Of a stretch of DNA of 64,000 bases, positions 3,361 to 16,740 are shown in pieces. Each line of letters starts with the position of its first letter. Position 1 is the first letter of the stretch. The notes under the pieces were generated by a model. It was not told where the DNA came from. It was given only the letters and a program-made list of their open reading frames with translations, and searched no databases. Origin of the DNA: a phage; NCBI GenBank assembly GCA_018027755.1, contig GCA_018027755.1_4098.1, one strand, 5' to 3'. Made by a program: the position numbers and the translations under genes.

Positions 3361-3446
3361 AATCATTAGCTTATTACAGTTCAGCGGTGATCGGTGCATT
3401 GATCGCGGCATTGTTAGTAACCTATCTATTCTTTATGGTGATTTAA
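3357..3446 (+). CDS. small hydrophobic peptide (29 aa), single predicted TM helix
   Basis: ATGA overlap with upstream stop; hydrophobic sequence. Confidence 0.4.
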   Translation: MKSLAYYSSAVIGALIAALLVTYLFFMVI

Positions 3447-3581
3447 ATGAATCCTAACGGTTTAATTTACAGTACTCCTAAAACGAAAGCAGATAAAGCG
3501 AAAGCACGTAAAGCGAAAGTAAAGGAGTACATTAAGCAAGGCATGACGCGAAAGGCGGCAGTACTGAAAGCTAAAAAATAA
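3447..3581 (+). CDS. hypothetical small basic protein (44 aa)
   Basis: ATG immediately after upstream stop; Lys/Ala-rich. Confidence 0.4.
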   Translation: MNPNGLIYSTPKTKADKAKARKAKVKEYIKQGMTRKAAVLKAKK

Positions 3582-3589
3582 ATGAAAAA

Positions 3590-3676
3590 AGTGGTTGACT
3601 TCGGTCAGCCATTTTGCTATTATATATTCATTGAGAGATAGCTCACTAGCCCACCGGGTGCATAAGTGTATCTATT
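3590..3676 (+). repeat. repeated intergenic element, copy 1 (embedded promoter)
   Basis: TTGACT-17-TATTAT, then conserved core AGCCCACCGGGTGCATAAGTGTATC. Confidence 0.6.
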
Positions 3677-3795
3677 ATATAAGTATTGAGTACTGAAAAC
3701 TATTTTTAAAAAGTACTTGCAAACTATCTCAATTGGCGTATAATGTTTTACATCGCAAGGGGAAACGGTTTCCCCTGGTAATAAGGAAACAAATC

Positions 3796-4137
3796 ATGAC
3801 TATCTCAATTGCTCAATCTAACTTTGAAAATGAAATCATCGCCCAGGCACTGCGTTTAAATGATGGTCGGGCCGAAATTAATTACGGTTTCAATTCAGGC
3901 GGTTGTGAAAACTATCAGTACTTTGTAACGGCTGATGGCGGTGTCCTGGGTATCAATACAGTTATTGTAAACATCCAAAAAATTAATTTCAATGATCCAG
4001 ACGATAGCCAGTTTTACATTGTAGGCGTAGACGTGAACTATGAGGATGACTCACTAACTGATGATCACACTGGCGAGCGGTTAGAAAGTGCATACGGTGA
4101 AGATGATTATCAGTCCGGTCCAGAAGATTTCGAATAA
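3796..4137 (+). CDS. hypothetical acidic protein (113 aa)
   Basis: ATG after AAGGAAA SD downstream of hairpin; track ORF trimmed. Confidence 0.65.
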   Translation: MTISIAQSNFENEIIAQALRLNDGRAEINYGFNSGGCENYQYFVTADGGVLGINTVIVNIQKINFNDPDDSQFYIVGVDVNYEDDSLTDDHTGERLESAYGEDDYQSGPEDFE

Positions 4138-4151
4138 TATAAAAAAATAGT

Positions 4152-4211
4152 TTGACAATAGATTATAGTACTGTATAATAGTTTACATCAAGGGGAGAAA
4201 AACTTCTCCCC
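4152..4211 (+). promoter_or_regulatory. promoter plus 5' leader hairpin
   Basis: TTGACA-16-TATAAT; GGGGAGAA...TTCTCCCC hairpin. Confidence 0.65.
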
Positions 4212-4233
4212 ACTAACAGAGAGAGAAAACAAA

Positions 4234-4446
4234 ATGGCTAATATCCGGTCGAAATTAAAAAATGCAAAACAAGTTTTATTTTCAGATCATGAATACTTTA
4301 ATAAAGATATTACAGGAGTTACAAGTATCAAGGAAGTAAAAGAAAAAACCGGTGTTTTGTGTGATGTGCGATTAGTTGGGACATTTGGGAATAACGTGCT
4401 ATATCGCTGCGGTGATTACAATTTTACACTGACTATCATTAACTAA
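4234..4446 (+). CDS. hypothetical protein (70 aa)
   Basis: track ORF; purine-rich SD. Confidence 0.65.
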   Translation: MANIRSKLKNAKQVLFSDHEYFNKDITGVTSIKEVKEKTGVLCDVRLVGTFGNNVLYRCGDYNFTLTIIN

Positions 4447-4529
4447 AAATATTATCACAGTACTATTGACATAGTTTGATAGTACTGACATAATAACTTT
4501 TATCAACTACACTACTAAGGAATTAAAAA

Positions 4530-4709
4530 ATGGCTATCATCGCAAAAACTGAAATCGTTGGTCTGGATTCTATCATCATGACGTTTGAAGATCAAAAAGG
4601 TATGTATGTAGTTTCCTATGGTGATTATGTTCGGGAGTATGAAACGGTAGACGAAGCCTTTGAAAGTTATATTCGCCAGGTGAATAAAGCATACGACGAC
4701 TACCGCTAA
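4530..4709 (+). CDS. hypothetical protein (59 aa), MAII-start paralog
   Basis: ATG after TAAGGAA SD; promoter repeat upstream; resembles 1383 gene; below track cutoff. Confidence 0.55.
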   Translation: MAIIAKTEIVGLDSIIMTFEDQKGMYVVSYGDYVREYETVDEAFESYIRQVNKAYDDYR

Positions 4710-4801
4710 AATATATTACCAGTACTATTAAATCTATTGACAACGTTTGATAGTACTGTATAATAAGTTTTATAAACAGTAATTAACTTAACCTAAGAGA
4801 G

Positions 4802-4954
4802 AGAAACAAAATGATCGCACTGGATTCATTCATCGACGCAGTACTGGCAAAAACTGGCGAGGATCTGACCGCAGAACAATACGCGATGATCGAGCAATGT
4901 CAGCAAAACGGTAAATCGGTGAAAGATACTGTTAAGATTATCCGCAAGATGTAA
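4802..4954 (+). CDS. hypothetical protein (50 aa)
   Basis: ATG after AGAGAGAGAAA; promoter upstream; E. coli-like codons. Confidence 0.5.
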   Translation, partial: RNKMIALDSFIDAVLAKTGEDLTAEQYAMIEQCQQNGKSVKDTVKIIRKM

Positions 4955-4960
4955 TATTAT

Positions 4961-4988
4961 AGCCCACTGGTTAACGCTGGTGGGCTTT
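4961..4988 (+). terminator. terminator-like hairpin
   Basis: stem AGCCCAC/GTGGGCT then short T-run. Confidence 0.45.
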
Positions 4989-5059
4989 AATCATTTACCC
5001 TATACAATGCCAGTACTAAACCGTTTATCTCGTTAGAATGCGTTACAGGACGTTTAACA

Positions 5060-5257
5060 ATGATTAGCATGAAATCAGTACAAAAACAAATAGAAACATT
5101 ATCAAAAATTAAACGTAAACAGTACTCCTTAGAATATACAATCAATGGTAACTATCATCTAATGAAAGAAAATAATTTTATAGTCATTGATGAATCATTG
5201 CAAATCATTAGTATAGTACTGAAAGCATTAATCAATGACAGAAAAAAATTAAAATAA
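5060..5257 (+). CDS. hypothetical protein (65 aa), doubtful
   Basis: track ORF; no clear SD; AT-rich. Confidence 0.3.
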   Translation: MISMKSVQKQIETLSKIKRKQYSLEYTINGNYHLMKENNFIVIDESLQIISIVLKALINDRKKLK

Positions 5258-5363
5258 TCTATTGACAATATCATCCAGTACTGGCATAATACTTACATCA
5301 AGACGAGAACGTCACTAACCCATAGGGTGCACAAATGTAACTATATAATATCGTTCAATAAAT

Positions 5364-5423
5364 GATCAAAAAAGTACTGGATCAATTTAACATAAGGAGT
5401 ATAATTCTGATCAATTCTTGATC
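5364..5423 (+). promoter_or_regulatory. cluster of four GATC sites in TGATCAA context
   Basis: GATC at 5364, 5380, 5409, 5420; upstream of TraR-like gene. Confidence 0.4.
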
Positions 5424-5586
5424 AAAGGCAATATACGCAGTTGAATTTATATAGACAATACAAAGGCGTTACTATCCGTGGTAATGCTGGTGGATATGTA
5501 GTATCATATGGTTTGAATAAGATTAGCACTAGTAGTATTATTGTAGCATTACAGTACTATAGTATTTTTATAATGAGGTTAAAATA

Positions 5587-5844
5587 ATGGCAGTAGGATA
5601 CGCGAAAGACGGGGCCGAACAAGACGAGATTCACGCAGTGATTCAGGCCGCCGTTAACCACGCTAGAAAGCAAATTAACGCACAAAGAGAATCACTGGTA
5701 CATTGCCTCGACTGCGGCGATAAAATCCCTGAGAATCGACGCCAGGCCGTTATAGGGTGCATGTATTGTATTACTTGCCAGGAGGATCATGATAGTACTT
5801 TTAAAAGAGATCCGCGTAATTGTTGGCATAGATCTATGAGATAA
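5587..5844 (+). CDS. TraR/DksA-family C4 zinc-finger protein
   Basis: CLDCGDKIPENRR...CMYCITCQ matches TraR/DksA zinc-finger signature. Confidence 0.7.
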   Translation: MAVGYAKDGAEQDEIHAVIQAAVNHARKQINAQRESLVHCLDCGDKIPENRRQAVIGCMYCITCQEDHDSTFKRDPRNCWHRSMR

Positions 5845-5907
5845 AAAGTATTGACAGTACTGAAAGATAGTGTATAATGTTTTATATCTTAACTGAGGAT
5901 AGTAATC

Positions 5908-6264
5908 ATGGGAATACAACATATCACGCGTACTACTGACAATGGAGAGATCACTGGTTATCAGGTACAGGGCAAAGTAGCACAATTGCAGTACTGGTTT
6001 GTTAAACGTGGAATCATTGCACCGGATCTTGATTATGACCGTGTAGCGTTTATTGATTCTCTTTATGTTGATCCTGATAGTCGGGGCAATGGTGAAGGTA
6101 ACGAATTAATGAATGCCTTTATTGATGCCGCCGGTGATTCAGATTGTATCATCTTAGAATGCGATACGGGAGAAGATAACGCCTTTAATCTTAAAGAATG
6201 GTACGAAGGTTTCGGATTCGAGGTATTGATAGATAGTGAATATCCTATCATGATTTTATCATAG
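5908..6264 (+). CDS. small GNAT-like acetyltransferase (tentative)
   Basis: LYVDPDSRGNGEGNELM resembles GNAT motif A; SD GAGGA. Confidence 0.45.
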   Translation: MGIQHITRTTDNGEITGYQVQGKVAQLQYWFVKRGIIAPDLDYDRVAFIDSLYVDPDSRGNGEGNELMNAFIDAAGDSDCIILECDTGEDNAFNLKEWYEGFGFEVLIDSEYPIMILS

Positions 6265-6342
6265 TACTTGCATTTAGTTTTCAGTACTGTTATAGTACTT
6301 ACATCAAGGGGAAACGTCTTCCCCTACTAAGAGGAAATGAAA

Positions 6343-6531
6343 ATGGAAAACTTATCAAGTATTTTAGTACAAGATGATTTTGGCAATCCTGGTAGTGCTA
6401 TCATTGTTCGGGGTAATAAAGCAACGTTTGTTATTGCTGGTGGGCCAGTACAGCGTAGCATTAAAAATAATGCTGTTACCATTAATAATGTACGCTATCG
6501 CTTAGATAAAGAATTGATTCATAAACTTTAA
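6343..6531 (+). CDS. hypothetical protein (62 aa)
   Basis: second ATG chosen for SD spacing (track start 6337). Confidence 0.6.
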   Translation: MENLSSILVQDDFGNPGSAIIVRGNKATFVIAGGPVQRSIKNNAVTINNVRYRLDKELIHKL

Positions 6532-6538
6532 AAAGTAT

Positions 6539-6598
6539 TTGACAATAGATTATAGTGCTGTATAATAAGTTACATGAAGGGGTGAAATGATTCTCCCC
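6539..6598 (+). promoter_or_regulatory. promoter plus 5' leader hairpin
   Basis: TTGACA-16-TATAAT; GGGGTGAAATGATTCTCCCC hairpin. Confidence 0.65.
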
Positions 6599-6615
6599 AC
6601 TAAGAGGAAAGAAAA

Positions 6616-6828
6616 ATGCAAGGTCAACTAATCGTTCGTAAATGGTCTGATACTAACGAAAAACCGTGGGATGTACAATACATCGGACCGGATGGGGTAT
6701 CACGTTATCAGCCTGGCGTAACGCATAGTACTGAGCAATTCGCAAACGCTCACCGCGAACGCCTGTTAGAATCCATGAAACAGGGATTCTGTGAAAAATT
6801 CATTCAAGATCATTGGCTGAAAGATTAA
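6616..6828 (+). CDS. hypothetical protein (70 aa)
   Basis: track ORF; SD AAGAGGAAA. Confidence 0.7.
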   Translation: MQGQLIVRKWSDTNEKPWDVQYIGPDGVSRYQPGVTHSTEQFANAHRERLLESMKQGFCEKFIQDHWLKD

Positions 6829-6845
6829 TATAAGGAGTACAGCTT

Positions 6846-6938
6846 ATGCAAATGAATCCGATGATTATTGTTTTAGCTGTACTTATGATCATTCATGCAA
6901 TAGTAGAAGTATTAACGCAATCAGGAGTAATAAAATGA
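6846..6938 (+). CDS. small hydrophobic peptide (30 aa)
   Basis: ATG after TAAGGAG SD; hydrophobic; first of three coupled small ORFs. Confidence 0.45.
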   Translation: MQMNPMIIVLAVLMIIHAIVEVLTQSGVIK

Positions 6939-7108
6939 TTCAAGTAGAATTATCAGTACTGAAAGATCTGTTTTATCGGTTAGGTACTACTGGCGAGTAT
7001 CCTAAAAGTGATACCGCAAAACTTTTTGTATCACTCGACTTATGGCAACGCGAACAATTAGTAATGTCCTGGCGTAAAGGTAAAGCAGATAGCGAGGTGA
7101 AAGCATGA
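6935..7108 (+). CDS. hypothetical protein (57 aa)
   Basis: ATGA overlap with upstream ORF. Confidence 0.45.
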   Translation: MIQVELSVLKDLFYRLGTTGEYPKSDTAKLFVSLDLWQREQLVMSWRKGKADSEVKA

Positions 7109-7254
7109 AAGAATTCTTATTCGAAGTAGTGTTTCAAGGTGTCGGTAGTAACCAACTGATTCGCTCAAGTGGTTACAATGTTAACCAGGCATGGAATAAC
7201 ATTAAACAAATGTACCCGAACGCTATCACCTATCGCAACCCGAAACAAGTTTAA
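7105..7254 (+). CDS. hypothetical protein (49 aa)
   Basis: ATGA overlap with upstream ORF. Confidence 0.45.
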   Translation: MKEFLFEVVFQGVGSNQLIRSSGYNVNQAWNNIKQMYPNAITYRNPKQV

Positions 7255-7261
7255 AAATAAT

Positions 7262-7346
7262 TGAAAAAGGGATTGACACCGGTCAGTCCCTTTGCTATTA
7301 TATACGCATAGAAACAAATCAGCCCACAGGGTGCATAAATGTATCT
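7262..7346 (+). repeat. repeated intergenic element, copy 2
   Basis: TTGACA-17-TATTAT plus core AGCCCACAGGGTGCATAAATGTATC. Confidence 0.6.
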
Positions 7347-7569
7347 ATTGTTTGCTGGTGGCTAGTACTGAAAACTATTTTTAAAAAAGTACTTGCATTG
7401 TACTTAGAATCAAGTATAATGTTTTACATCAGGACGGGGAACGAAACAAGTAACCCCGTTAAGTAGTCCAGGAGTAAGACATACGAAAAACTCCCCTGAT
7501 AAAATAGTTTGACAATAGAAATTAAACGAGTATAATACTTACATCAACCACTGATAAGGAAACATAAAA

Positions 7570-7845
7570 ATGCGGATTCTACTGACAGCTAACGAAATCG
7601 AACAAGTACTGACTACTAACCTGGAAGACTGGAAACGTGAAGCAGATATCCAGGCGGTTCAATGGCTTAACGATAAGTTAACGCCGGATGACTTAAGCAA
7701 GATTGTAGATCCTCAATTCTACGAAGATATTCACGACACCGCGTTAAGCGTCGAGGATGTACTTGATAAGCACTACATTGATACTGATTTACATGTTTAC
7801 GGTCGTAAAAACTTTATCACTATTCACGACATTTACAATACTTAA
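7570..7845 (+). CDS. hypothetical protein (91 aa)
   Basis: track ORF; SD TAAGGAAA; promoter upstream. Confidence 0.7.
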   Translation: MRILLTANEIEQVLTTNLEDWKREADIQAVQWLNDKLTPDDLSKIVDPQFYEDIHDTALSVEDVLDKHYIDTDLHVYGRKNFITIHDIYNT

Positions 7846-7932
7846 GTATTGACAAAGTATCTTAGTACTGTATAATAGTTTACATCAAGGCGGGGAAATG
7901 GTTCCCCTCCTAACTAAAAGAGAGAAATTAAA

Positions 7933-8115
7933 ATGGCTAAGTGCACTATCTGTAAGAAAGAAATCGTATTAGTTCCAAGTGCCCGTGAACGTGCCGCTCG
8001 GTTCGGTGGCAAAGCGTCAGACTATACAAAAATGTTTACTGCCCATGCAGATTGCCAGGTAGCAAAACGTTCACAAGAAAGCGTAGAATTAATGCGTAAA
8101 CTTTCCAAAAAATAA
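7933..8115 (+). CDS. hypothetical small Cys-containing protein (60 aa)
   Basis: track ORF; promoter and hairpin upstream. Confidence 0.65.
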   Translation: MAKCTICKKEIVLVPSARERAARFGGKASDYTKMFTAHADCQVAKRSQESVELMRKLSKK

Positions 8116-8201
8116 GTATTGACAAAGTATCTTAGTACTGTATAATAGTTTACATCAAGTGAGGGGAAACGGTTCCCCTCCTAACAGAGAGAGAAATAAA
8201 A

Positions 8202-8525
8202 ATGGCTATGATCCTTACCCAGAAAGTGGAATTGAAAATTGTAACCTCCTTTGACATTAAAGTTAATCGCTGGACTGATCGGAACGGCAATACTTACCAC
8301 TCTTGCTACGTGTCTGCATTGATTGGTGATCGTTGGGAAGACCTGGGACACGAAACTTTTACATACGGTTACGGTACGCAAGGCGAATACACGGGCTTGG
8401 AGATCATTAAAGAAACCGTTATAGGTTTCAACCCGAAAGAAAAAGTTATTCACCGCATCGAAAAAGAGATTAACAAAGAAATAACAGTTCGCTACTACGA
8501 TGTAAAACGTAAGAAAGACATGTAA
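8202..8525 (+). CDS. hypothetical protein (107 aa), paralog of 1677 gene
   Basis: track ORF; shares GNTY...YGYG and DVKRKKD with 1677-2021. Confidence 0.7.
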   Translation: MAMILTQKVELKIVTSFDIKVNRWTDRNGNTYHSCYVSALIGDRWEDLGHETFTYGYGTQGEYTGLEIIKETVIGFNPKEKVIHRIEKEINKEITVRYYDVKRKKDM

Positions 8526-8620
8526 TAGAATCCATTTAAAGTACTATTTGACATTACACAGATAGTACTTTATAATAGACTCTAACTTGTAGTACTAACT
8601 CAACTAATAGGATGTATACC

Positions 8621-9016
8621 ATGATTACTAAATTCTACGCTACCCGTGAAGCTGCCCGTATTGTTGCACGCGAGGAAGGAGCAGCATTTAAAGACATGGG
8701 AACGACAGCACCGAAAGGTCAACGCTGGGCCGTACAGTTCAAAGAAATCTCTGATATTGTGAATTCACCTGAGCCAGTACTGACAGCAGCAGAACTAAAA
8801 CGAGCGGATATGCTGGCGGCAATACTTGACGCTCAAGATGAATTTATCGCTGATTCTGATATCAAAGTACAGGTAAACCACACCGCATGGACTCACGCGG
8901 ATCACCTGGCAAACCTTAAGCGTCCAAGTGAACTGATTCGCAACCAGAAAGAGATCCGACACGACCGTAAGGGTAATCGTGTAACAGTATACAGTAAACG
9001 CCGCCAGGTTATCTAA
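8621..9016 (+). CDS. hypothetical protein (131 aa)
   Basis: ATG with AGGA 8 nt upstream; track start 8612 alternative. Confidence 0.65.
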   Translation: MITKFYATREAARIVAREEGAAFKDMGTTAPKGQRWAVQFKEISDIVNSPEPVLTAAELKRADMLAAILDAQDEFIADSDIKVQVNHTAWTHADHLANLKRPSELIRNQKEIRHDRKGNRVTVYSKRRQVI

Positions 9017-9038
9017 TAACTTGCAGTACTAACAACAC

Positions 9039-9063
9039 GGCGGGATCAGTTCCCGCCTTTTTT
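9039..9063 (+). terminator. rho-independent terminator
   Basis: stem GGCGGGA/TCCCGCC then T-run. Confidence 0.8.
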
Positions 9064-9077
9064 ATAGGACAAACAAA

Positions 9078-9332
9078 ATGATTAAGGTTCAACTATATAA
9101 AGATAACATCTTACGGGTACACTATAAAGCACCGAAGAGAATCATCACAAAGGCCGTACAGCTTGCTAATGAGTTTATTAATGGTAACCTATTACCAAGG
9201 AAGTTAAGCAACGGGAAACTGCGTGTAATCGACGTGGACACTAACAACAGGATAGTAATCGAGAACACAGGAAAAATAAACCTTTATGAACACCAACAAT
9301 ATAATAAGAAAATAAAACTAATATCACGTTGA
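9078..9332 (+). CDS. hypothetical basic protein (84 aa)
   Basis: track ORF; weak SD. Confidence 0.5.
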   Translation: MIKVQLYKDNILRVHYKAPKRIITKAVQLANEFINGNLLPRKLSNGKLRVIDVDTNNRIVIENTGKINLYEHQQYNKKIKLISR

Positions 9333-9385
9333 CAGTACTCAAATGTTTTAGTACTATGTACACATACCAACACGGGAGAAACAAA

Positions 9386-9604
9386 ATGAAATTATCTAAA
9401 ATCGAAAAAACAACTATTGATGTAGCAGTTAAGCACGGTTATACCTTTCGTAATGATTCACATTTTACCAATTTTCAACAAGGACAGAGAACTATTAAAA
9501 AACTAATTGACAAAGGCTTATTAGTTAAAGTAGATAACGGTAACGGTGTGGAGTATCAACCAACACAGGACGCATTTTATTTTAAGAAATATAATATTAT
9601 CTAA
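9386..9604 (+). CDS. hypothetical protein (72 aa)
   Basis: ATG after GGGAGAAACAAA; promoter TTGACA-17-TACTAT at 9331; track ORF trimmed. Confidence 0.6.
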   Translation: MKLSKIEKTTIDVAVKHGYTFRNDSHFTNFQQGQRTIKKLIDKGLLVKVDNGNGVEYQPTQDAFYFKKYNII

Positions 9605-9662
9605 TTGACAGTACTCAAATGTTTTAGTACTATATGTACATACCAACACGGGGAAAAACAAA

Positions 9663-9905
9663 ATGATTACTTTAGAAAAACGTATCAAAGAAACTACATC
9701 GCTGGTGGAATTGTTAACAGTACTCAAATGTAAAACAACACCATTCAGCACGCCGGACTTTATTAATATGGTTGATGTTAATGGTCGCTATCGTATCACG
9801 GTCGAACAAGGAGCGGCGAAAGTATTCAGTACTAAAAACACTAAGGAAGTGATCCACGCCGTTAATGTTAAAAAAGTAGTTGCCATTGATAGTAAAGTAC
9901 TGTAA
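9663..9905 (+). CDS. hypothetical protein (80 aa)
   Basis: track ORF; duplicated copy of the 9331 promoter at 9604. Confidence 0.6.
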   Translation: MITLEKRIKETTSLVELLTVLKCKTTPFSTPDFINMVDVNGRYRITVEQGAAKVFSTKNTKEVIHAVNVKKVVAIDSKVL

Positions 9906-9936
9906 GATAGTTTCATTAACTCAAGGAGTAAATGCA

Positions 9937-10521
9937 ATGCGTAATTATACTAAATTCATCCGTACACTGTCAGAAATGGAAACCAACAAAGAGATCCTTT
10001 CAGCTTGTCGGTTAGCTGGCCTGGAGATCATCGGTGCTGGTTCTTCCCGTATAGTATTCGCTTTAAATGATCGGTTAGTGATTAAGGTCGCGAATTGTGA
10101 TGCGGGTGTCGAACAAAATGAAACTGAATGTAAGGTATGGAATTTTTTAGACTATGACCGCCCTCAGTTGAAACAGTACTTTGCAAAGGTGCATATGCAT
10201 TTATGCGATCCTGATAATATGTTTATCGTTATGGATCGGTTGAGTACTGCAAGCAAAGGCAGTGTGAAGCACGTTAACGCGTGCAATGAATTAAAGTACA
10301 ATATTAAACGTAATGCAATCGAACGCCAGCACCGCTTTGCTGATGCACTACAACACGTTGATGATACATTATCAACACTAACGATAAGAGATATCAGAAA
10401 ACAGAATATCGGCCAGGATCGTAATGGCCTTATTAAAGTACTTGATTACGGTTTAACCCGCAATATCTGGAATCAGTACTATAAAAAGCGTGATGTGGCA
10501 GCAAGTAAGGTAACACGATAA
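9937..10521 (+). CDS. Ser/Thr protein-kinase-like protein
   Basis: IGAGSSRIVF Gly-loop, VIKVA lysine, IRDIRKQNIG catalytic loop, LDYG (DFG-like); SD AAGGAG. Confidence 0.55.
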   Translation: MRNYTKFIRTLSEMETNKEILSACRLAGLEIIGAGSSRIVFALNDRLVIKVANCDAGVEQNETECKVWNFLDYDRPQLKQYFAKVHMHLCDPDNMFIVMDRLSTASKGSVKHVNACNELKYNIKRNAIERQHRFADALQHVDDTLSTLTIRDIRKQNIGQDRNGLIKVLDYGLTRNIWNQYYKKRDVAASKVTR

Positions 10522-10529
10522 AAAAGATT

Positions 10530-10620
10530 AAAAAAGGGATTGACTCCGGTCAGTCCCTTTGCTATTATATATCCATTGAGAGATAACTCACTGACCCATA
10601 GGGTGCGGAAGTGTATCTAT
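10530..10620 (+). repeat. repeated intergenic element, copy 3
   Basis: TTGACT-17-TATTAT plus conserved core. Confidence 0.6.
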
Positions 10621-10742
10621 TATATAAGTATTCAGTACTGAAAACTATTTTTAAAAAAGTACTTGCATTGTACTTAGAATCAAGTATAATGTTTTATATC
10701 GAGAGGGGGAAATGGTTCTCCCTGGCAATAAGGAATAAAATC

Positions 10743-10964
10743 ATGACTACAATGACTTGCATTTACGCTTCCAATCGTCTGAATGATGCGGCCTTTAATG
10801 TTGATTCAGAATATCAATGTTATCGGGATGAAAATAAAAAAGTTTTTGTAGTTGATAATAATGGTTTCCATATTGAATTACAATCCGGCTTCACTGGTGT
10901 TGATGGTAAATCAGTATGGGGCGTACAGGATGATAAAGGTACATATCATTTTAAACGTAATTAA
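10743..10964 (+). CDS. hypothetical protein (73 aa)
   Basis: ATG after TAAGGAATAAAATC; track ORF trimmed past hairpin. Confidence 0.65.
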   Translation: MTTMTCIYASNRLNDAAFNVDSEYQCYRDENKKVFVVDNNGFHIELQSGFTGVDGKSVWGVQDDKGTYHFKRN

Positions 10965-11048
10965 GTATTTGACAAAGTATCTTAGTACTGTATAATAGTT
11001 TACATCAAGGGGAGAATAGTTCTCCCCGATACTAAAAGGAATAAAATC

Positions 11049-11456
11049 ATGACTACTACCAATCAAGCTCGGAACATCACCAACGATAAAAATCATGCTG
11101 CAATGGTCGCTGGTTACATTGAAGCTATGCAATTCAGTACTGTACACAATGAGAACGGCGAATACCTGGAAGATTATGAATTATCAGAGCAAGCCCATCA
11201 AGCGGCAGTGATTGCATGTTCACGTTTCCTTGCTGTACATGGTGAAGATATGGAAACAGTACAAAAACACCATAATCCTGATTATACTTATAGTCATGCA
11301 GGTCATGATCTCTTTCTTACTCGCGAAGGTCACGGCACTGGTTTTTGGGATCGTGATATCGGTCACTATGATGATATATTCACTAAGTACTGCGAAGAAA
11401 TCAACGTTTGCGATCCCTATGTAGGCGATGATAATCTAATCTATATGGGCGAATAA
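11049..11456 (+). CDS. hypothetical protein (135 aa)
   Basis: track ORF; SD AAAGGAA; promoter and hairpin upstream. Confidence 0.7.
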   Translation: MTTTNQARNITNDKNHAAMVAGYIEAMQFSTVHNENGEYLEDYELSEQAHQAAVIACSRFLAVHGEDMETVQKHHNPDYTYSHAGHDLFLTREGHGTGFWDRDIGHYDDIFTKYCEEINVCDPYVGDDNLIYMGE

Positions 11457-11544
11457 AAGTATTTGACAAAGTATATCAGTACTGTATAATAGTTTACATC
11501 AAGGGGAGAATAGTTCTCCCCCACCAATAAAAGGAAACAAAATT

Positions 11545-11817
11545 ATGTCCAGCTACTCCGCTACTATGATCATTAAAGATATGAACGGTAATCCTACTTC
11601 TGCTGGTGGATCATTTGGAAACATTAATTTAGATGGGCGGTTATCCATGCAATCAGCCATCGATACAGCGAAAGAAGTTTTTAAGAATGAATGTACTGTA
11701 AGCAAGCTGGATTATATGGGATTCGCTATCGAGAAAACTAATCGTTTTGTGAACTACAAAAATCCACTGATGATTGATACTAACCTGAAAGCTAACGAAG
11801 TGGAATACTTATTATGA
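11545..11817 (+). CDS. hypothetical protein (90 aa)
   Basis: track ORF; SD AAAGGAAA. Confidence 0.7.
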   Translation: MSSYSATMIIKDMNGNPTSAGGSFGNINLDGRLSMQSAIDTAKEVFKNECTVSKLDYMGFAIEKTNRFVNYKNPLMIDTNLKANEVEYLL

Positions 11818-12005
11818 CAGTTGAAGAAGTTAAAAAAGTACTGGCAGTACTACGCTATCATAATCATTGCAAGGTGAAGAATGATCCTGATTATCTCGAT
11901 TCATCCCTGGAAGAGGATACACTACAAGCAATAAGCCATATGCAAAAAATGCTTAAGCGTATGACCGAAAAGAATAGACCGGACTATATCGGAAATAAAA
12001 TTTAA
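11814..12005 (+). CDS. hypothetical protein (63 aa)
   Basis: track ORF; ATGA overlap with upstream gene. Confidence 0.6.
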   Translation: MTVEEVKKVLAVLRYHNHCKVKNDPDYLDSSLEEDTLQAISHMQKMLKRMTEKNRPDYIGNKI

Positions 12006-12091
12006 AAAGTACTTGCATTGTAGTTAGATTAACGTATAATGTTTTATATCGAGAGGGGAAATGGTTTCCCCTCAAGTCCAGGAGATACACC

Positions 12092-12355
12092 ATGAACACT
12101 ATCGAAATCACTATCAATGCACACGTATACGACAACGTAGTACTGCAAACTACTATGACCGCTAATGATACCAGTACTTTGCGGAATACTGTTATTAGTG
12201 CCGTATGTGCTGCAATCGGTGATGTTGCCCTGGAAAATGCAGAACATATCAACAACGGTTTCACTATGTGCAAACGTGATAACGCAAAACATATCATCGT
12301 GGAAGGTTACGGCGGTGTAGAATTTAATGTTTATATGAAAAAAGTATTTGCATAA
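12092..12355 (+). CDS. hypothetical protein (87 aa)
   Basis: track ORF; SD CAGGAGA. Confidence 0.7.
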   Translation: MNTIEITINAHVYDNVVLQTTMTANDTSTLRNTVISAVCAAIGDVALENAEHINNGFTMCKRDNAKHIIVEGYGGVEFNVYMKKVFA

Positions 12356-12422
12356 TAACTAAAACAAAGTATAATGTTTTGCATAGGGGGAGATATCCTC
12401 CCCCACTAAAAGGAGTAATAAA

Positions 12423-12647
12423 ATGGCTAACTTTGATGAACTGATGCGGGAAGTAGCTACCCTGGCAGAAGAGAAGAAATCATTCGATTCTATCTATAAC
12501 ACCTCTTACCGTGATTCAGTACTGGCATGTACTCAGGATCAAAAAGATGAACTAATCGCCACATATCATGAAGCATGGAAGTACTACCGCCAATGGGAGA
12601 AAGAAGAAAGCGAGTCTACCATCAACGGCATCAATAATCTAATCTAA
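12423..12647 (+). CDS. hypothetical protein (74 aa)
   Basis: track ORF; SD AAAGGAG. Confidence 0.7.
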   Translation: MANFDELMREVATLAEEKKSFDSIYNTSYRDSVLACTQDQKDELIATYHEAWKYYRQWEKEESESTINGINNLI

Positions 12648-12723
12648 AAGTTTTATTTCAGTACTATTGACATAGCTTGATAGTACTGATGTAATAACTT
12701 TACTAACTACAAGGGGAAACATA

Positions 12724-12981
12724 ATGGAACAGTTCACACAATATCGGGTAAATCCTCAAGCTATGGCCTACGTAGAAGACCATAAAACGTTACCAGTACT
12801 GCAACCAGTTAAAGGCCATATCTATCGTGCAATGTCGTGGAGTACGGCCCAGGATGGCTATAAAACCGTAGCTGTCGGTATGTACTGCGGTAATGGTGAA
12901 TGGTTTGATCCAAATAATCCGGTCGCCGTTGACAGTACTGAAAAAATGAAATGGGCCGACTACATCGAAGATATTTCATAA
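12724..12981 (+). CDS. hypothetical protein (85 aa)
   Basis: track ORF; repeated promoter type upstream. Confidence 0.65.
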   Translation: MEQFTQYRVNPQAMAYVEDHKTLPVLQPVKGHIYRAMSWSTAQDGYKTVAVGMYCGNGEWFDPNNPVAVDSTEKMKWADYIEDIS

Positions 12982-13071
12982 AAACTATTTGACAGTACTA
13001 ACCAGTAATGTATAATGTTTTACATAGAGCGGGGGAATAGTTCTCCCGCCAATAGTTTGGAGTAAAACATT

Positions 13072-13272
13072 ATGTCTATCGCTATCGCCCTGGTTGAAGT
13101 ACTGAAAGAAGCTAAAGCCAACCTTATCGATGTACAGATTAAGGAATTGCAAAACGGCTTAATCGGCTGCACTTGTACCGCTGGCGGTGCGGCAGACTAT
13201 CGAGAACACGAATCACTCGAATCACTGGTTCGGTATCTTACCATGATCGTTGATGATTGGAGAATCATCTAA
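13072..13272 (+). CDS. hypothetical protein (66 aa)
   Basis: track ORF; SD TGGAGT. Confidence 0.65.
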   Translation: MSIAIALVEVLKEAKANLIDVQIKELQNGLIGCTCTAGGAADYREHESLESLVRYLTMIVDDWRII

Positions 13273-13284
13273 CAAAAAAAGAAT

Positions 13285-13370
13285 AAAAAAAGGGATTGAC
13301 TCCGGTCAGTCCCTTTGCTATTATATACGCATAGACAAAAACTAGCCCACAGGGTGCATAAGTGTATCCA
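13285..13370 (+). repeat. repeated intergenic element, copy 4
   Basis: TTGACT-17-TATTAT plus core AGCCCACAGGGTGCATAAGTGTATC. Confidence 0.6.
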
Positions 13371-13519
13371 AAATATATAGTTAATAACGGTGAGTAACTA
13401 TCTGCTGGTGGAGTGAAAACTATTAATAAAAAAAGTATTGACAAAGTATATCAGTACTGCGATAATGTATCTCGTAGGGCGGCAATGGTGCGACGGCCCA
13501 CAAAGTTAGGAGATTCAAA

Positions 13520-13852
13520 ATGACTACTTCAATCGCTATCGTTAAAGCTTTCATCCGTACTAATGTTTCCTCTGTATTCATCGACGGCCTCGACCGTAAC
13601 GTAGAATACTCAATCATTATCGCACAAACGGCAAACGGTTCTCGGTACATCCTTAATGATAGTGAAGCAAATCACTACTACTTCACTAAAGCCACTGGCT
13701 TTAAACGCATCGATGCTGATGTAGTATACGCTAAGATGAATAAGCTGGTAGATAAGATTAACGCTAAAGGTACTATAGATTTACAGTACTGGACCGAAAC
13801 CGATCCAGAATATGGATCTCACCGCTACCTGAATCCAGGTATTAAAATGTAA
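13520..13852 (+). CDS. hypothetical protein (110 aa)
   Basis: track ORF; SD TAGGAGA. Confidence 0.7.
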   Translation: MTTSIAIVKAFIRTNVSSVFIDGLDRNVEYSIIIAQTANGSRYILNDSEANHYYFTKATGFKRIDADVVYAKMNKLVDKINAKGTIDLQYWTETDPEYGSHRYLNPGIKM

Positions 13853-14721: not shown

Positions 14722-14871
14722 AAAGGGATTGGACTATGGCAAAATGCGTAGGGGGCTAAAGGGCGGGTAACCTTAGCGACTTCGATAAAGGGGTATTACG
14801 AATAAAATGTTATTGATTTTTTATACGAATCGTATATTATAGGATTGATATTATTTTTTAATGGAGTCCCT

Positions 14872-15069
14872 ATGCGTATTTTAACTAAAGAACAGCACCA
14901 CGAAAGACTTATCAATAACATGGCTATGATAATGTATAAGTCCCATGACCGTGGTATTGCCTATAAGCGTGAATTAATTATGGCACTATTCATTGGAACT
15001 AACTTTCAGGAAAGGTATGTCAACGATTGGATTTGGTATTTAATTGAAGATATAACGAGTAAACTATGA
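14872..15069 (+). CDS. Fam-A paralog 1
   Basis: C-terminal IGTNFQERYV motif; SD GGAG; first gene of array. Confidence 0.65.
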   Translation: MRILTKEQHHERLINNMAMIMYKSHDRGIAYKRELIMALFIGTNFQERYVNDWIWYLIEDITSKL

Positions 15070-15266
15070 AAATGCGTATTTTAAATAAAGAAGAATATCA
15101 ATCACTGTTACGTAAAAACTTCACAAAGATTTATAATACAGACACACACGTAGAACGAATGGAGTTATACCTTTTGATTACTTTGGGAACTAACTATCAG
15201 GAAAGATGGGTGATTCAATATATGGATACATTGAAAAATAAAATATTGTCCACGAGGAAACAATGA
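15066..15266 (+). CDS. Fam-A paralog 2
   Basis: LGTNYQERWV motif; ATGA overlap. Confidence 0.65.
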   Translation: MKMRILNKEEYQSLLRKNFTKIYNTDTHVERMELYLLITLGTNYQERWVIQYMDTLKNKILSTRKQ

Positions 15267-15472
15267 AAACTATAACACGAACCCAATCATACGGTCTTAT
15301 CTTGAAATACATGGACTTAATGGTGGATATCAGCAAAGACCTTCCTAAAACTGAAATTGAAGTTGCAAGAGCAGAGATCCGCATGTTGGCTGTACTGAAC
15401 ACAAACCATCAGGAAGATTATGTTGAAGAATGGATTCGATTTTTAATTCAAGATATAAAGAGTAAATTATGA
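15263..15472 (+). CDS. Fam-A paralog 3
   Basis: LNTNHQEDYV motif; ATGA overlap. Confidence 0.65.
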   Translation: MKTITRTQSYGLILKYMDLMVDISKDLPKTEIEVARAEIRMLAVLNTNHQEDYVEEWIRFLIQDIKSKL

Positions 15473-15684
15473 TTATTATAGAAAACTCATATCAATATAC
15501 TGAACGCATCGCTGCCAGACAACTTGAAATCCTCATAATATACGAAGAGACTTCTGATTTAAACTTAGCCGAGGTATTGGAAAATGATATACTATTGGGT
15601 GCATTCTTAGGAACAGACTATCAGAAGTATTATGAGGAAAAGTATTTGTCATCTCTTGAGAAATATATCAGGAGCAAATTATGA
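15469..15684 (+). CDS. Fam-A paralog 4
   Basis: LGTDYQKYYE motif; ATGA overlap. Confidence 0.65.
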   Translation: MIIIENSYQYTERIAARQLEILIIYEETSDLNLAEVLENDILLGAFLGTDYQKYYEEKYLSSLEKYIRSKL

Positions 15685-15893
15685 TTTTTTTAACACCAGA
15701 AGAATATAAGAAACGTTTCAATTCCGCACAGGGTGAAATCTTACTTATATACCTTTCAAATGCAGACCTTAACTTATCAAGGGTATTAGAAAAAGATTTA
15801 CTTATGGGTGCATTCCTTGATACAGACTTTCAGGTGTATTATGTAGGGGAATACTTAATTGCACTTCAGAATTATATCAGGAGTAAACTATGA
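15681..15893 (+). CDS. Fam-A paralog 5
   Basis: LDTDFQVYYV motif; ATGA overlap. Confidence 0.65.
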   Translation: MIFLTPEEYKKRFNSAQGEILLIYLSNADLNLSRVLEKDLLMGAFLDTDFQVYYVGEYLIALQNYIRSKL

Positions 15894-16117
15894 AACATTT
15901 AAGTAACTCCGAGAAGAATAAAATTATCGTTGCTGCAATAAACAAATATTTTACACTTCCTCACAAAGAAGGTTTATGTGTAAGGGAACACAGGATAAAC
16001 ACCACCGATAAACGCATGATGGCTGTACTGGGGACGAACTTCCAGGAAGAGTATGTTATTGCACACATAGTTGCACTCAAGAATTACATTATGGACAAAT
16101 GTAATGAACATCATTAA
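15890..16117 (+). CDS. Fam-A paralog 6
   Basis: LGTNFQEEYV motif; ATGA overlap. Confidence 0.65.
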   Translation: MKHLSNSEKNKIIVAAINKYFTLPHKEGLCVREHRINTTDKRMMAVLGTNFQEEYVIAHIVALKNYIMDKCNEHH

Positions 16118-16328
16118 TAACTTTGAATACGAGGCCCGTGCTAAGAGTGCCAGAAAAAAAGAGAACACCATTTACTTCACTATGATGTACTTACAATGGA
16201 CTGAAATTGAAGAAAAGGTTGCTGAAGTATGGATGTTGGAATTCATGGGGACGCAGTATCAGAATAGGTTTGCGGGTGAGTATATCAATGTTCTTATGAA
16301 ACAAATAGAAAGAAAGGAAAAGAACTAA
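16104..16328 (+). CDS. Fam-A paralog 7
   Basis: MGTQYQNRFA motif; internal ATG chosen (track start 16071). Confidence 0.6.
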   Translation: MNIINNFEYEARAKSARKKENTIYFTMMYLQWTEIEEKVAEVWMLEFMGTQYQNRFAGEYINVLMKQIERKEKN

Positions 16329-16486
16329 TGGTTTTCATTAACATATCTGACCAACTCGATACTAAACTAGAAGTCGAGCAGAGTGAGGGAGGGATGTTGT
16401 ACTTTCTTGGAACTTCTCATCAGAATTTTTATATCCATGAACACATAGTTGCACTCACAAATCTAATAAGGGATAAATGTAAATGA
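16328..16486 (+). CDS. Fam-A paralog 8 (52 aa)
   Basis: LGTSHQNFYI motif; below track cutoff; overlaps neighbours by 1 and 4 nt. Confidence 0.55.
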   Translation: MVFINISDQLDTKLEVEQSEGGMLYFLGTSHQNFYIHEHIVALTNLIRDKCK

Positions 16487-16740
16487 AACACTTGACGAAC
16501 GATGAATATTCACTTAGAATTCGAAAGCTCACCCCAGAAGCAAGAGTAATCTACGATGACGATGCACTTTCATGGAACGAGATGAAAGTTAAAGTTCATG
16601 AGCTATGGTTGCTGTACTTTGTGGGAACCCAATATCAAGAGAAATATTGTACCGATTATCTTGAACAACTAATGGATCTTATACAGATAAAACTAAATGA
16701 ACGAATTGTGGAAAAATATGAAAACTTTATCAAGCACTGA
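16483..16740 (+). CDS. Fam-A paralog 9
   Basis: VGTQYQEKYC motif; ATGA overlap. Confidence 0.65.
   Translation: MKHLTNDEYSLRIRKLTPEARVIYDDDALSWNEMKVKVHELWLLYFVGTQYQEKYCTDYLEQLMDLIQIKLNERIVEKYENFIKH

Follow-up and report, generated by a model that had tools for sequence, protein, structure and literature searches.

The terminal repeat of an Asteriusvirus-like (121Q/PBECO4) jumbo coliphage carries five copies of a composite terminator–promoter cassette, each of which, in a reading to which we give about an even chance, would on its own direct the early transcription of a short non-coding RNA. The 64,000-nt stretch of DNA analysed here (the window) includes part of the ∼21-kb direct terminal repeat of this phage, which covers window bases 1 to about 14,770 and is dense with tiny early genes. 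The core of the element defines a previously undescribed family, of which RaK2/121Q-like jumbo phages carry 5–15 copies in their terminal repeats.

Five intergenic cassettes in the window

An earlier note on this DNA had described a repeated intergenic element in four copies plus a core-only copy near 5300, and the repeat is borne out, as five copies are found where none is expected by chance. Their core modules (YUAR-CCC-AYA-GGGUGC...UGUAUCUAU) start at 3646, 5315, 7319, 10591 and 13342. The sequence GCCCACAGGGTGCATAAGTGTATC, with at most one mismatch, matches at 3649, 7322 and 13345 (0.00 expected, 100 shuffles), and the looser CCCAYMGGGTGC recovers all five copies, at 3650, 5319, 7323, 10595 and 13346 (0.14 expected), every one on the + strand. 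A covariance model made from relatives' copies and run without filters over the 64 kb returns exactly five copies with E-values from 2e-15 to 9e-8, the next match having an E-value of about 1. The core is present in all five as claimed, although that of the 10530 copy differs at 4 positions (ACCCATAGGGTGCGGAAGTGTATC). Likeness among the copies stops at the borders of the intergenic cassette and the coding DNA between them is unrelated; the repeat is therefore a cassette and not a duplication.

In four of the five copies the upstream gene block is followed, right after its stop codon, by a 12-bp hairpin of the intrinsic-terminator type. The 5′ arm of this hairpin also provides the –35 box (TTGAC) for a sigma-70 promoter that is close to consensus and has an extended –10, in agreement with the proposed overlap of promoter and inverted repeat. 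These hairpins lie on the + strand at 3588–3615 (copy 1, AAAGTGGTTGAC-TTCG-GTCAGCCATTTT, after ORF 3447–3581), 7266–7293 (copy 3, AAAGGGATTGAC-ACCG-GTCAGTCCCTTT, after ORF 7105–7254), 10533–10560 (copy 4, after ORF 9880–10521) and 13289–13316 (copy 5, after ORF 13072–13272). Within them are the –35 boxes at 3595–3600 (TTGACT), 7273–7278 (TTGACA), 10540–10545 (TTGACT) and 13296–13301 (TTGACT), and the extended –10 boxes follow at 3618–3623 ((TGc)TATTAT), 7296–7301, 10563–10568 and 13319–13324 (all TATTAT), giving the expected TTGAC(T/A)-17-TATTAT with upstream TG at 3595–3623, 7273–7301, 10540–10568 and 13296–13324. A 40-mer (AAAAAGGGATTGACNCCGGTCAGTCCCTTTGCTATTATAT) recurs exactly at 7264, 10531 and 13287, and the copy at 3590 is a diverged version of it (AAAAAGTGGTTGACTTCGGTCAGCCATTTTGCTATTATAT) whose differences from the other copies are compensatory within the terminator stem. 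The homologous hairpins of phage G17 are annotated as terminators (by ARNOLD for copy 1), and on this sequence evidence we read the inverted repeat as an intrinsic terminator that closes the gene block before it, a role that the earlier note had not recognised.

The supposedly core-only copy 2 turns out to have a promoter of its own, of the ordinary early kind and without a terminator hairpin (TTGACA-17-(TGg)CATAAT, 5262–5290, + strand), followed by an RNA module at 5301–5346 (39 bits, E 4e-9) with the 5′ hairpin GACG-AGAA-CGTC and the core CTAACCCATAGGGTGCACAAATGTAACTAT (5315–5344). It sits in a 330-bp indel (5259–5588) that is missing from G17 and has a 10-bp direct repeat on its flanks. The other RNA modules, also on the + strand, are at 3632–3677 (58 bits, E 2e-14), 7309–7350 (35 bits, E 9e-8), 10577–10622 (62 bits, E 2e-15) and 13332–13373 (39 bits, E 6e-9). 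Copies 1 and 4 begin with the 5′ hairpins TGAG-AGATAG-CTCA (3632–3645) and TGAG-AGATAA-CTCA ahead of the cores CTAGCCCACCGGGTGCATAAGTGTATCTAT (3646–3675) and CTGACCCATAGGGTGCGGAAGTGTATCTAT (10591–10620), and copies 3 and 5 begin with the A-rich leaders AGAAACAAA, which forms no hairpin, and AGACAAAAA ahead of TCAGCCCACAGGGTGCATAAATGTATCTAT (7319–7348) and CTAGCCCACAGGGTGCATAAGTGTATCCAA (13342–13371).

In copy 1 an AU-rich tail (3676–3716), containing a cAGTACTg-type box (3689–3694) and CTATTTTT, reaches the promoter of the next gene (–35 at 3717, –10 at 3738–3744, + strand), and copies 3 and 4 share this tail type (7349–7392 and 10621–10662). No convincing intrinsic terminator was found in these three tails. 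A standard gene promoter follows each of the five copies, as had been noted, with –10 boxes at 3738, 5399, 7414, 10684 and 13460. Chi sites are located at 7354–7361 and 13404–13411, after the modules of copies 3 and 5.

To judge from its layout, the element is a composite terminator–promoter that resembles the promoter-early stem-loop (PeSL) cassettes of T4-type phages (Arbiol et al. 2010, PMC2839356; Comeau et al. 2014, PMC4122927). In both, a composite stem-loop terminator is joined to a strong sigma-70-type early promoter, the cassette is repeated in the intergenic spaces of a region rich in small ORFans, homology is limited to the cassette while the ORFs between copies are unrelated, and there is a tie to indels between close relatives. 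They differ in that the stem-loop overlaps the –35 box here but lies upstream of it in PeSLs, in that transcription from the promoter here runs into a conserved non-coding core and not into a Shine-Dalgarno sequence with a start codon, in that the present unit also occurs without a stem-loop, antisense or in convergent pairs, and in the setting, which here is the terminal repeat of RaK2-like jumbo phages.

If the cassette were purely of this regulatory and recombinational type, the core would be a mere part of the leader without a partner of its own, and terminator, promoter and leader would be kept to insulate transcription units and to offer homology patches for ORF shuffling, with a tandem promoter as the practical effect. 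The placement of a stem-loop terminator (e.g. A3-4G3-loop-C3T3-4) beside a sigma-70 early promoter among small ORFans, as described for PeSLs (PMC4122927), the end of homology at the cassette borders and the direct repeat around the copy 2 indel are all consistent with this. However, the core is nearly invariant across genera with only about 23–29% ANI (PMC13070987) whereas promoter spacers, 5′ hairpin stems and terminators have diverged freely, which argues for purifying selection on the core itself and not for recombination homogenisation. Moreover, these cassettes finish with a non-coding core, unlike described PeSLs, whose last elements are a Shine-Dalgarno sequence and a start codon, and many copies stand alone and have a terminator of their own, so we consider this explanation unlikely. 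Likewise, the tandem promoter suggested in the earlier note describes the window copies well but leaves the invariant core and the antisense copies of relatives unexplained.

Promoters, orientation and terminators in relatives

A search of relatives for the core, as the earlier note had proposed, yielded 84 distinct copies from nine RaK2-like phages. The core is restricted to RaK2-like jumbo phages of Enterobacterales (Asteriusvirus, Alcyoneusvirus, Mimasvirus, Eneladusvirus, CBB and Munch-like phages), where it occupies unannotated intergenic stretches within or close to the terminal repeats. The copies were gathered with a core-based weight matrix, so the conservation of the core is partly by construction, while neither the promoter nor the 5′ hairpin played a part in choosing them. 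All 84 copies have a sigma-70 promoter matching at least 8 of 12 positions, and 72 of them one matching at least 10 of 12, compared with 10.5% and 1.05% of random positions in the same regions, and the distance from the end of the –10 box to the CCC of the core is 20–29 nt throughout. As the promoter sequences themselves differ among copies, it is promoter function and spacing that are conserved, not promoter sequence.

The unit is also independent of gene orientation. In Klebsiella phage Muenster the copies at 14010 and 20988 of L017 are antisense to all flanking genes, the first ending at an annotated bidirectional terminator and the second at a terminator hairpin. Antisense copies that stop at such terminators would yield RNAs of about 100 nt. 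Some relatives' copies meet a second unit head-on. Strong intrinsic terminators with differing stem sequences close the stand-alone units of RaK2, Muenster, Munch, vB_Ec-M-J and two metagenomic jumbo contigs. They begin about 51–53 nt past the CCC, giving predicted RNAs of about 95–105 nt. By their architecture, these units look like small-RNA genes.

The same data bear on the possibility that the element is a cis-acting leader that modifies the transcribing polymerase, as do lambda nut and HK022 put. In such a model the nascent two-hairpin RNA would bind RNA polymerase, alone or with a phage factor, and make it resistant to pausing and termination across the next early gene block. Every window copy opens a gene block right after a terminator, is co-oriented with its genes and lacks a terminator of its own. 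The layout is also like that of putL (PMC9378689), with a short RNA of two small stem-loops within about 50–70 nt, immediately downstream of an early sigma-70 promoter, with -10-like TATNAT sequences inside the transcribed element and with several copies per genome. In contrast to put and nut, there are 5–15 copies rather than 2, nearly every downstream gene carries its own promoter, and relatives' units run antisense to genes into a strong terminator within about 50 nt of the core or occur as head-on pairs, which would make no sense for an antiterminator. No Rfam family matched the element, and it presumably also lacks boxA- or boxB-like sequences. We regard a polymerase-modifying leader as rather unlikely.

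Structure and conservation of the RNA module

The alignment and structure prediction that the earlier note had envisaged revealed a covarying 5′ hairpin and a CCC/GGG mini-hairpin in the core. The 5′ hairpin is found in 65 of 84 copies compared with 29 ± 4 in shuffled leaders, in 32 different stems in which all four base pairs change on both sides. Across 90 distinct sequences 93% of stem cells are paired, and the covariation score is 0.38 versus 0.13 in shuffles and ≤0.05 with the partner slid, which points to selection on this hairpin at the RNA level. The CCC/GGG stem shows zero variation and is hence uninformative for covariation either way. The core hairpin is closed by an A-U pair in 48 copies and by a G-U pair in 40, and the G-U pairs are strand-specific, as they function only in the sense RNA.

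These features also speak to the alternative that the core acts as double-stranded DNA, either as an operator or roadblock (about +15 to +45) for a regulator that shuts off the early promoter, or as an R-loop origin in which promoter and AT-rich tail form a transcription-primed origin like T4 oriF and oriG, convergent pairs then being bidirectional origins. An invariant CCC/GGG stem and GGGTGC are what base-specific recognition would predict, the 20–30 nt 3′ of the core are about 85–90% A+T, some relatives have convergent promoter pairs with an AT-rich centre and fixed spacings, and the clade is distantly T4-like (PMC5259590). However, a core loop of 3 or 4 nt over a retained stem and a closing pair that is A-U or G-U are RNA-like, and the covarying 5′ hairpin indicates selection on the transcript itself. 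Furthermore, 8–15 origins within 20 kb are implausible, many copies lead directly into a terminator, and paired cores are spaced (57, 68, 75 and 79 bp) out of helical phase. A DNA-level role is thus improbable, and the tight coupling to a transcription start, together with the strand-specific G-U pairs, likewise speaks against the recombination or regulator-binding site offered in the earlier note.

A further alternative is that ribosomes bind at the core to translate a tiny ORF or minigene (M-Y-L...), with GGGUG as Shine-Dalgarno sequence and the NUG five bases on as start codon. Of 83 copies, 79 indeed have A, G or T at position 10 past GGGTGC, and in 54 the next two bases are TG. The window copies would encode peptides of 0–11 residues, save copy 4, whose frame continues into the downstream ORF (10611–10964). 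Yet the conservation of TGTATCTAT has no 3-nt periodicity, third codon positions being as conserved as first and second, and in 29 of the 83 copies ATC, GTC or a similar triplet stands in place of a start codon. For these two reasons the core RNA is best read as non-coding. Neither length nor sequence of the peptides is conserved and the putative Shine-Dalgarno sequence is paired inside the CCC/GGG stem, which leaves a minigene highly improbable.

A candidate early small RNA

Among the roles suggested in the earlier note, a small RNA is best backed by the comparative evidence, namely a promoter at fixed distance in 84/84 copies, a covarying 5′ hairpin, orientation independence and terminators in relatives; the window copies, however, lack a terminator of their own. 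They share the orientation of the downstream genes. None of the five ends in a terminator that convinces, and they are predicted to fold no more stably than shuffled sequences, so that a discrete small RNA is no more than a candidate in this phage. Its 3′ end may arise by processing in the AU-rich tail, or the RNA may stay joined to the next early mRNA as an added 5′ segment.

Sequence similar or extensively antisense to the element was found neither in E. coli genomes nor in 185,579 bacterial species genomes, enriched antisense sites were not found in the window, and the core is no more complementary to rRNAs, tmRNA, RNase P RNA and GcvB than its shuffled versions are. The searchable literature yielded no expression data on any phage of this clade. 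Enterohaemorrhagic E. coli offers a precedent in AgvB and AsxR, multicopy small RNAs of about 50–100 nt that are borne by temperate lambdoid prophages and work in trans by mimicking or sponging regulatory RNAs of the host. Their targets are known, in contrast to the present unit, whose complementarity to GcvB or other tested host RNAs is not above chance. Another precedent is jumbo phage PA5oct of the same wider clade, whose long terminal repeat likewise encodes non-coding RNAs, without ORFs and highly transcribed throughout infection by RNA-seq (Lood et al. 2020, PMC7318152). These are longer (236 and 451 nt) and single-copy (PMC7318152) and have no sequence or motif similarity to the unit, and the first 30 kb of PA5oct contains neither CCC-N3-4-GGGTGC nor a covariance-model match.

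For an early small RNA, we propose that host RNA polymerase would initiate at the A in a conserved CAT, about 7 nt past the –10 box, with starts predicted from spacing near A3630, 5297, A7308, A10575 and A13331. The first ∼50 nt of RNA would then comprise a freely varying but paired stem with a purine-rich loop (GCGAAA, GAGAAA, AGAUAA, AGAACAA) or an unpaired A-rich leader, the invariant mini-hairpin R-CCC-AYA-GGG-U, and GC-N5-UGUAUCUAU with the AU-rich tail. Such an RNA would be made upon entry of the DNA into the cell, and from multiple copies (5 in the window, 8–15 per terminal repeat in relatives), and is therefore likely to be abundant. Its invariant core would present a recognition surface for a protein or RNA partner, of host or phage, through which it may regulate in trans, or serve as a decoy, while the phage takes over the host.

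A repeated element in the terminal repeats of RaK2-like phages

The earlier note had described four copies of an intergenic element with its own promoter and a conserved core, and the repetition itself is confirmed: a 24-nt core match with at most one mismatch occurs at 3649, 7322 and 13345 (0 in 100 shuffles), and the looser core CCCAYMGGGTGC is found at 3650, 5319, 7323, 10595 and 13346, all on the + strand, where 0.14 occurrences are expected. A 40-nt string covering hairpin and promoter is exact at 7264, 10531 and 13287; at 3590 the element is present as claimed but has diverged from this string, with stem differences that are compensatory (G-C to A-T, T-A to G-C). The supposedly core-only copy at 5300 turned out to have its own promoter (TTGACA-17-CATAAT, 5262–5290) and a 5′ hairpin in the usual relative position. 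A covariance model built from the relatives and run unfiltered finds these five copies, and no more, in 64 kb (copies 1 to 5, with cores at 3646, 5315, 7319, 10591 and 13342).

Between 3000 and 14000 the window is 92–96% identical to the Asteriusviruses vB_Ec-M-J, fEgEco12, G17, 121Q and PBECO4, jumbo coliphages of this genus having genomes of ~350–380 kb. The annotated direct terminal repeat of vB_Ec-M-J comprises its first 21,525 bp, and by homology with this phage window positions 1 to ~14,770 would lie inside such a repeat. The region holds dozens of ORFs of 40–130 codons, on the + strand nearly throughout, and those around the copies are nearly all hypothetical. In almost every case the early ORFs have their own sigma-70-type promoter followed by a GC-rich 5′-UTR hairpin.

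When the relatives were searched for the core, as the earlier note had proposed, it proved to be present clade-wide in RaK2-like phages. These make up 68 of the 69 records that contain it by blastn among 50,697 phage records, with hosts in Escherichia, Klebsiella, Salmonella, Erwinia, Yersinia, Cronobacter, Serratia and Pectobacterium, the exception being a borderline match (E = 4) in a 142-kb Vibrio phage. An exact-pattern scan of IMG/VR placed the core almost exclusively in ~350-kb jumbo contigs, with one match on a 32-kb contig; a looser pattern scan of viral contigs gave mostly chance matches and was discarded. Within the phage records the core lies mostly in unannotated DNA, and inside the terminal repeat where one is annotated. 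Scanned with a weight matrix, nine such phages gave 104 matches in their terminal-repeat regions, 84 of them distinct, and the covariance model gave 111 matches on the relatives and zero in Pseudomonas phage PA5oct. The clade's genome papers, within the readable literature, do not mention the element. We conclude that it is a real, clade-wide and undescribed element, probably a non-coding transcription unit, and ~100 unannotated intergenic sites in public genomes are now open to labelling.

Several other features of the window were recorded alongside. A second, gene-linked type of promoter and stem-loop cassette is common to nearly every small early gene between 538 and 13906 (e.g. 2892–2981, 4143–4232, 6530–6619 and 10960–11049), in the order A-tract, AGTACTTGCA or TTGACA, 16–17 nt, TATAAT, ACATCAAGGGGAGA-loop-TCTCCCC and Shine-Dalgarno, and its repeats fall into families D1–D7 with 12–14 copies each. 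At 7393–7508, copy 3 is followed by a gene-type promoter (–10 box 7414–7420) without an ORF behind it; ~85 nt containing a hairpin (GGACGGGG...CCCCGTT...) come next, ahead of another promoter (7509–7536), that of the gene at 7570. This stretch may give another short non-coding transcript. The segment 361–500 contains a terminator (366–387, AGCCCAC-CTTAAACA-GTGGGCT) that has 13 nt (TCACTAGCCCACC) in common with the core region of copy 1, and behind it lies an inverted repeat with a Chi site on each strand (412 and 474). Just past the inferred end of the terminal repeat, ~14,800–20,000 is a tandem array of overlapping ~70-codon ORFs with repeated DNA motifs in common (families D12–D20, e.g. ...TTAGGAACAAACTATCAAGA...), a paralogous small-gene family whose counterpart in vB_Ec-M-J is EcMJ_054-087.

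The E. coli Chi sequence (GCTGGTGG) occurs on the + strand at 474, 4976, 5486, 6436, 7354, 9701, 11602 and 13404, that is eight times within the first 13.4 kb and in a single orientation, where ~0.2 per strand is expected per 64 kb; three of these sites lie 10–140 nt downstream of a core. There are nine + strand sites in vB_Ec-M-J and 5–11 gene-sense sites per ~20–26 kb, versus ~0.1 expected, in the other enterobacterial relatives counted (the counts include the relatives' sequences L002, L017, L110, L111 and L112), and none was counted in PA5oct. This suggests RecBCD protection or RecBCD-driven recombination at the genome ends. The palindrome AGTACT, mostly as cAGTACTg, is present 225 times in the 64-kb window versus ~21 expected (e.g. 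3689, 3712, 5277, 7364, 10634 and 13453). It lies within ORFs as well as in promoters, there at around –38 and –16, without strand bias, and is almost missing from the bins 16–20 kb and 24–28 kb. Its core is also that of the E. coli SlmA-binding site, with different flanking bases.

Promoter, 5′ hairpin and core

All 84 distinct copies have a sigma-70 promoter ahead of them that scores 8/12 or better, and for 72 the score is 10/12 or better, with 20–29 nt from the end of the –10 box to the CCC of the core; at random positions in the same regions the corresponding rates are 10.5% and 1.05%. The promoters themselves vary in sequence, some lying inside terminator hairpins and others being ordinary early promoters; conservation concerns the existence of a predicted transcription start and its distance from the core. 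A 5′ hairpin of 3–5 bp ending 2–6 nt before CCC is found in 65 of the 84 copies, compared with 29 ± 4 in shuffled leaders. It is made from 32 different stems with purine-rich loops (GCGAAA, GAGAAA, AGAUAA, AGAACAA), and when 90 distinct sequences are aligned on the model, each of the four pairs varies on both sides, 93% of cells are paired and the covariation score is 0.38, as against 0.13 for shuffles and ≤0.05 for slid partners. In the copies without the hairpin, window copies 3 and 5 among them, the same A-rich motif is present but unpaired (AGAAACAAA). Structure prediction, which the earlier note had suggested, finds the whole predicted RNAs of the window unremarkable, their fold energies giving z-scores of –0.7 to +0.4. 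A pseudoknot between loop and tail (AGAUA with UAUCU) was rejected, as it is confined to the AGAUAA-loop subclass and shows no covariation with other loops.

The core follows with the consensus YUAR-CCC-AYA-GGG-U-GC-RGARN-U-G/C-U-A/G-UCUAU, where CCC, GGGUGC and a number of positions after them never vary, and 3′ of it come 20–30 nt at 85–90% A+T. Its hairpin has a loop of 3 or 4 nt, closed by A-U in 48 copies and by G-U in 40, and because the stem is invariant it is uninformative for covariation. The rival reading of the core as a DNA site, which would cover the recombination or regulator-binding site among the earlier note's options, can draw on this invariance; against it can be set the constant distance from a predicted transcription start and the covarying hairpin next to the core.

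In the window, the promoter is merged with a terminator. The inverted repeat reads AAAGGGATTGAC-NCCG-GTCAGTCCCTTT, then GCTATTATAT, and in four of the five copies forms a 12-bp stem with a 4-nt loop and a U-rich tail. The hairpin starts 7–17 nt past the preceding ORF's stop codon, and the scan accepts it as a terminator; the homologous hairpins of G17 are annotated ARNOLD terminators (–13.0 to –14.7 kcal/mol). Owing to a conserved U-G wobble, the hairpin is good on the sense strand only. TTGAC from its 5′ arm is also the –35 box, which 17 bp separate from an extended –10 box (TGcTATTAT), and the same dual use recurs, on other stem sequences, in RaK2, Muenster, GAP32, Serratia BF and Munch.

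This arrangement resembles the PeSL of T4-type phages, in which shuffled ORFans have composite stem-loop terminators with strong early promoters on their flanks (PMC4122927). The window cassettes likewise join a stem-loop terminator to a sigma-70-like early promoter and are repeated amid small ORFans in a hyperplastic region, with homology confined to the cassette: the copies are 75–83% similar over 110–230 nt, ending at the intergenic borders, which agrees with the PeSL design. As the coding DNA between the copies is unrelated, segmental duplication was rejected as the source of the repeats. The cassettes depart from a PeSL in one defining feature: a PeSL ends in the Shine-Dalgarno and start codon of the downstream gene whereas the end of the window cassette is not a gene's ribosome-binding site; behind its promoter lie the non-coding core and then a second, gene-type promoter before any ORF. 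The shell of terminator and promoter thus belongs to a known kind, and the conserved RNA core is new. The PeSL idea of mobile terminator-promoter cassettes is thereby extended to another phage group, with an RNA instead of a gene as the proposed cargo.

A further trait of PeSLs is a position at indels or replacements between close relatives. In the only indel case examined, a 330-bp segment (5259–5588) flanked by the 10-bp direct repeat TTAAAATAAT is precisely missing from G17, where the flanking genes abut. It holds the promoter and core of copy 2, which is without the stem-loop, together with a second promoter with hairpin, a Chi site and the Shine-Dalgarno of a DksA-like gene, and exists in two allelic versions among Asteriusviruses (about 97% and about 78% identical).

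Evidence for a transcription unit of its own

A small RNA was the first of the earlier note's options, and several marks of an RNA gene are found: each of the 84 copies has its own promoter at a fixed distance from the core, the 5′ hairpin supplies a structure backed by covariation, and no ORF is conserved. A tiny ORF or minigene (NUG-UAU-CUA...) is unlikely because the conservation shows no codon periodicity, and the candidate NUG start codon is missing in about a third of the copies (~35%).

A simple scan flagged a terminator 3′ of the unit in 23 of the 84 relatives' copies, about a dozen of which are convincing and GC-rich on folding. Strong intrinsic terminators stand behind copies in RaK2, Muenster, Munch, vB_Ec-M-J (5580, minus strand) and two metagenomic genomes; eight of them begin 51–53 nt past CCC, with differing stems (GGGAGAC/GTCTCCC, GGGGATC/GATCCCC, GGGGAGT/GCTCCCC, GGGGGC/GCCCCC, CAGTACTGG/CCAGTACTG), and the RNAs of the terminated units are predicted to be ~95–105 nt long. 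In Klebsiella phage Muenster (L017) all genes flanking the copies at 14010 and 20988 are on the opposite strand, and the former, which has the annotated gene 027 terminator on one side and the start of gene 028 on the other, runs into the 027 terminator. Of the 84 copies, 26 have a second unit converging on them, its offset fixed at 57, 68, 75 or 79 nt (pairs at L112 7403–7482; L003 8050–8136; L017 23513–23637; L111 740–826; L110 3789–3857 and 6618–6686; L002 3530–3598). These pairs form palindromic modules of ~200 bp, and those with longer spacers have a near-consensus Fur box at the dyad, e.g. GATAATGATAATCATTTAC in Munch; in Muenster, more Fur-like boxes are grouped close to the left end of the terminal repeat.

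Antisense, terminated and convergent arrangements are not expected of a downstream-gene leader, a tandem promoter or an antiterminator, and the tandem-promoter option of the earlier note does not fit them. A cis-acting polymerase modifier, i.e. an antitermination RNA of the nut or put type, would suit the window itself, as all five copies are upstream of genes and co-oriented with them, and the layout of HK022 putL is alike, with two stem-loops just past an early promoter and –10-like sequences within (PMC9378689); membership in the put class is nevertheless argued against by the antisense and terminated copies in relatives, and a nut/put role in general by the convergent pairs as well. Nor did Rfam (release 15) at gathering thresholds give any match in the window or in 125 kb of five relatives' terminal repeats. 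The core is not known to resemble boxA or boxB.

For the small-RNA reading, the window is the more difficult case. The terminator scan and folding gave a convincing terminator for none of its five copies, and it has neither a convergent pair nor a good Fur box. Since the copies are co-oriented with genes and without a convincing terminator, their RNA would be cut from a longer transcript or kept as the 5′ extension of the next mRNA, and this is where the small-RNA reading is weakest for this phage. No transcriptome of any 121Q/RaK2-like phage was found in the searchable literature.

Candidate partners and roles of the core RNA

Searches for a family, partner or target returned the following. 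With Rfam at E up to 10 across 3400–13600, no match overlaps a copy, and ARAGORN found no tRNA and no tmRNA. The 46-nt consensus has no similar or long antisense sequence in 5,426 E. coli genomes (blastn), and none turned up when 185,579 bacterial and archaeal species genomes (one per species) were scanned for the exact pattern. A partial complementarity to GcvB was not above shuffled controls, and shuffled cores reach the same longest Watson-Crick runs with 16S, 23S, 5S, tmRNA, RNase P RNA and GcvB. Antisense targets in the window were also rejected, 9-mer complements being at about chance and a single 13-mer at 45697, within an ORF, being judged chance. Compared by eye, the conserved positions do not fit a CRISPR-repeat mimic (type I-E, I-F), a ToxI-type antitoxin RNA, RfaH ops, a DnaA box, a CsrA GGA motif or a T4 RegA site. 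In the Pseudomonas relative PA5oct, the terminal repeat encodes two ncRNAs that are highly transcribed (PMC7318152); they have no motif in common with the core family.

The contrast between a freely covarying 5′ hairpin and an invariant core suggests that the hairpin is structural, perhaps a stabiliser of the 5′ end, and that the core may be read base by base, by a protein or by an invariant RNA. We therefore commit, with a confidence evenly balanced between right and wrong, to a trans-acting, high-dosage early RNA for host takeover; its rivals are a cis-acting polymerase modifier, a pure cassette and a DNA site. A more specific and clearly more doubtful proposal is that the core RNA represents a new jumbo-phage host-takeover class, an abundant multicopy early transcript whose invariant mini-hairpin would sequester or redirect a partner, either a host factor common to Enterobacterales or the transcribing polymerase, the convergent pairs, some of them Fur-boxed, being a regulated variant.

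The RNA module is nearly base-for-base conserved across the phages of eight host genera, with 5–15 promoter-driven copies per repeat, and so the core RNA would likely rank with the early products that these phages make in greatest amount. Expression starts with the ~20-kb terminal repeats of RaK2/121Q-like jumbo phages, whose genes are almost all of unknown function, and the core RNA offers a concrete, testable way into host takeover by these phages.
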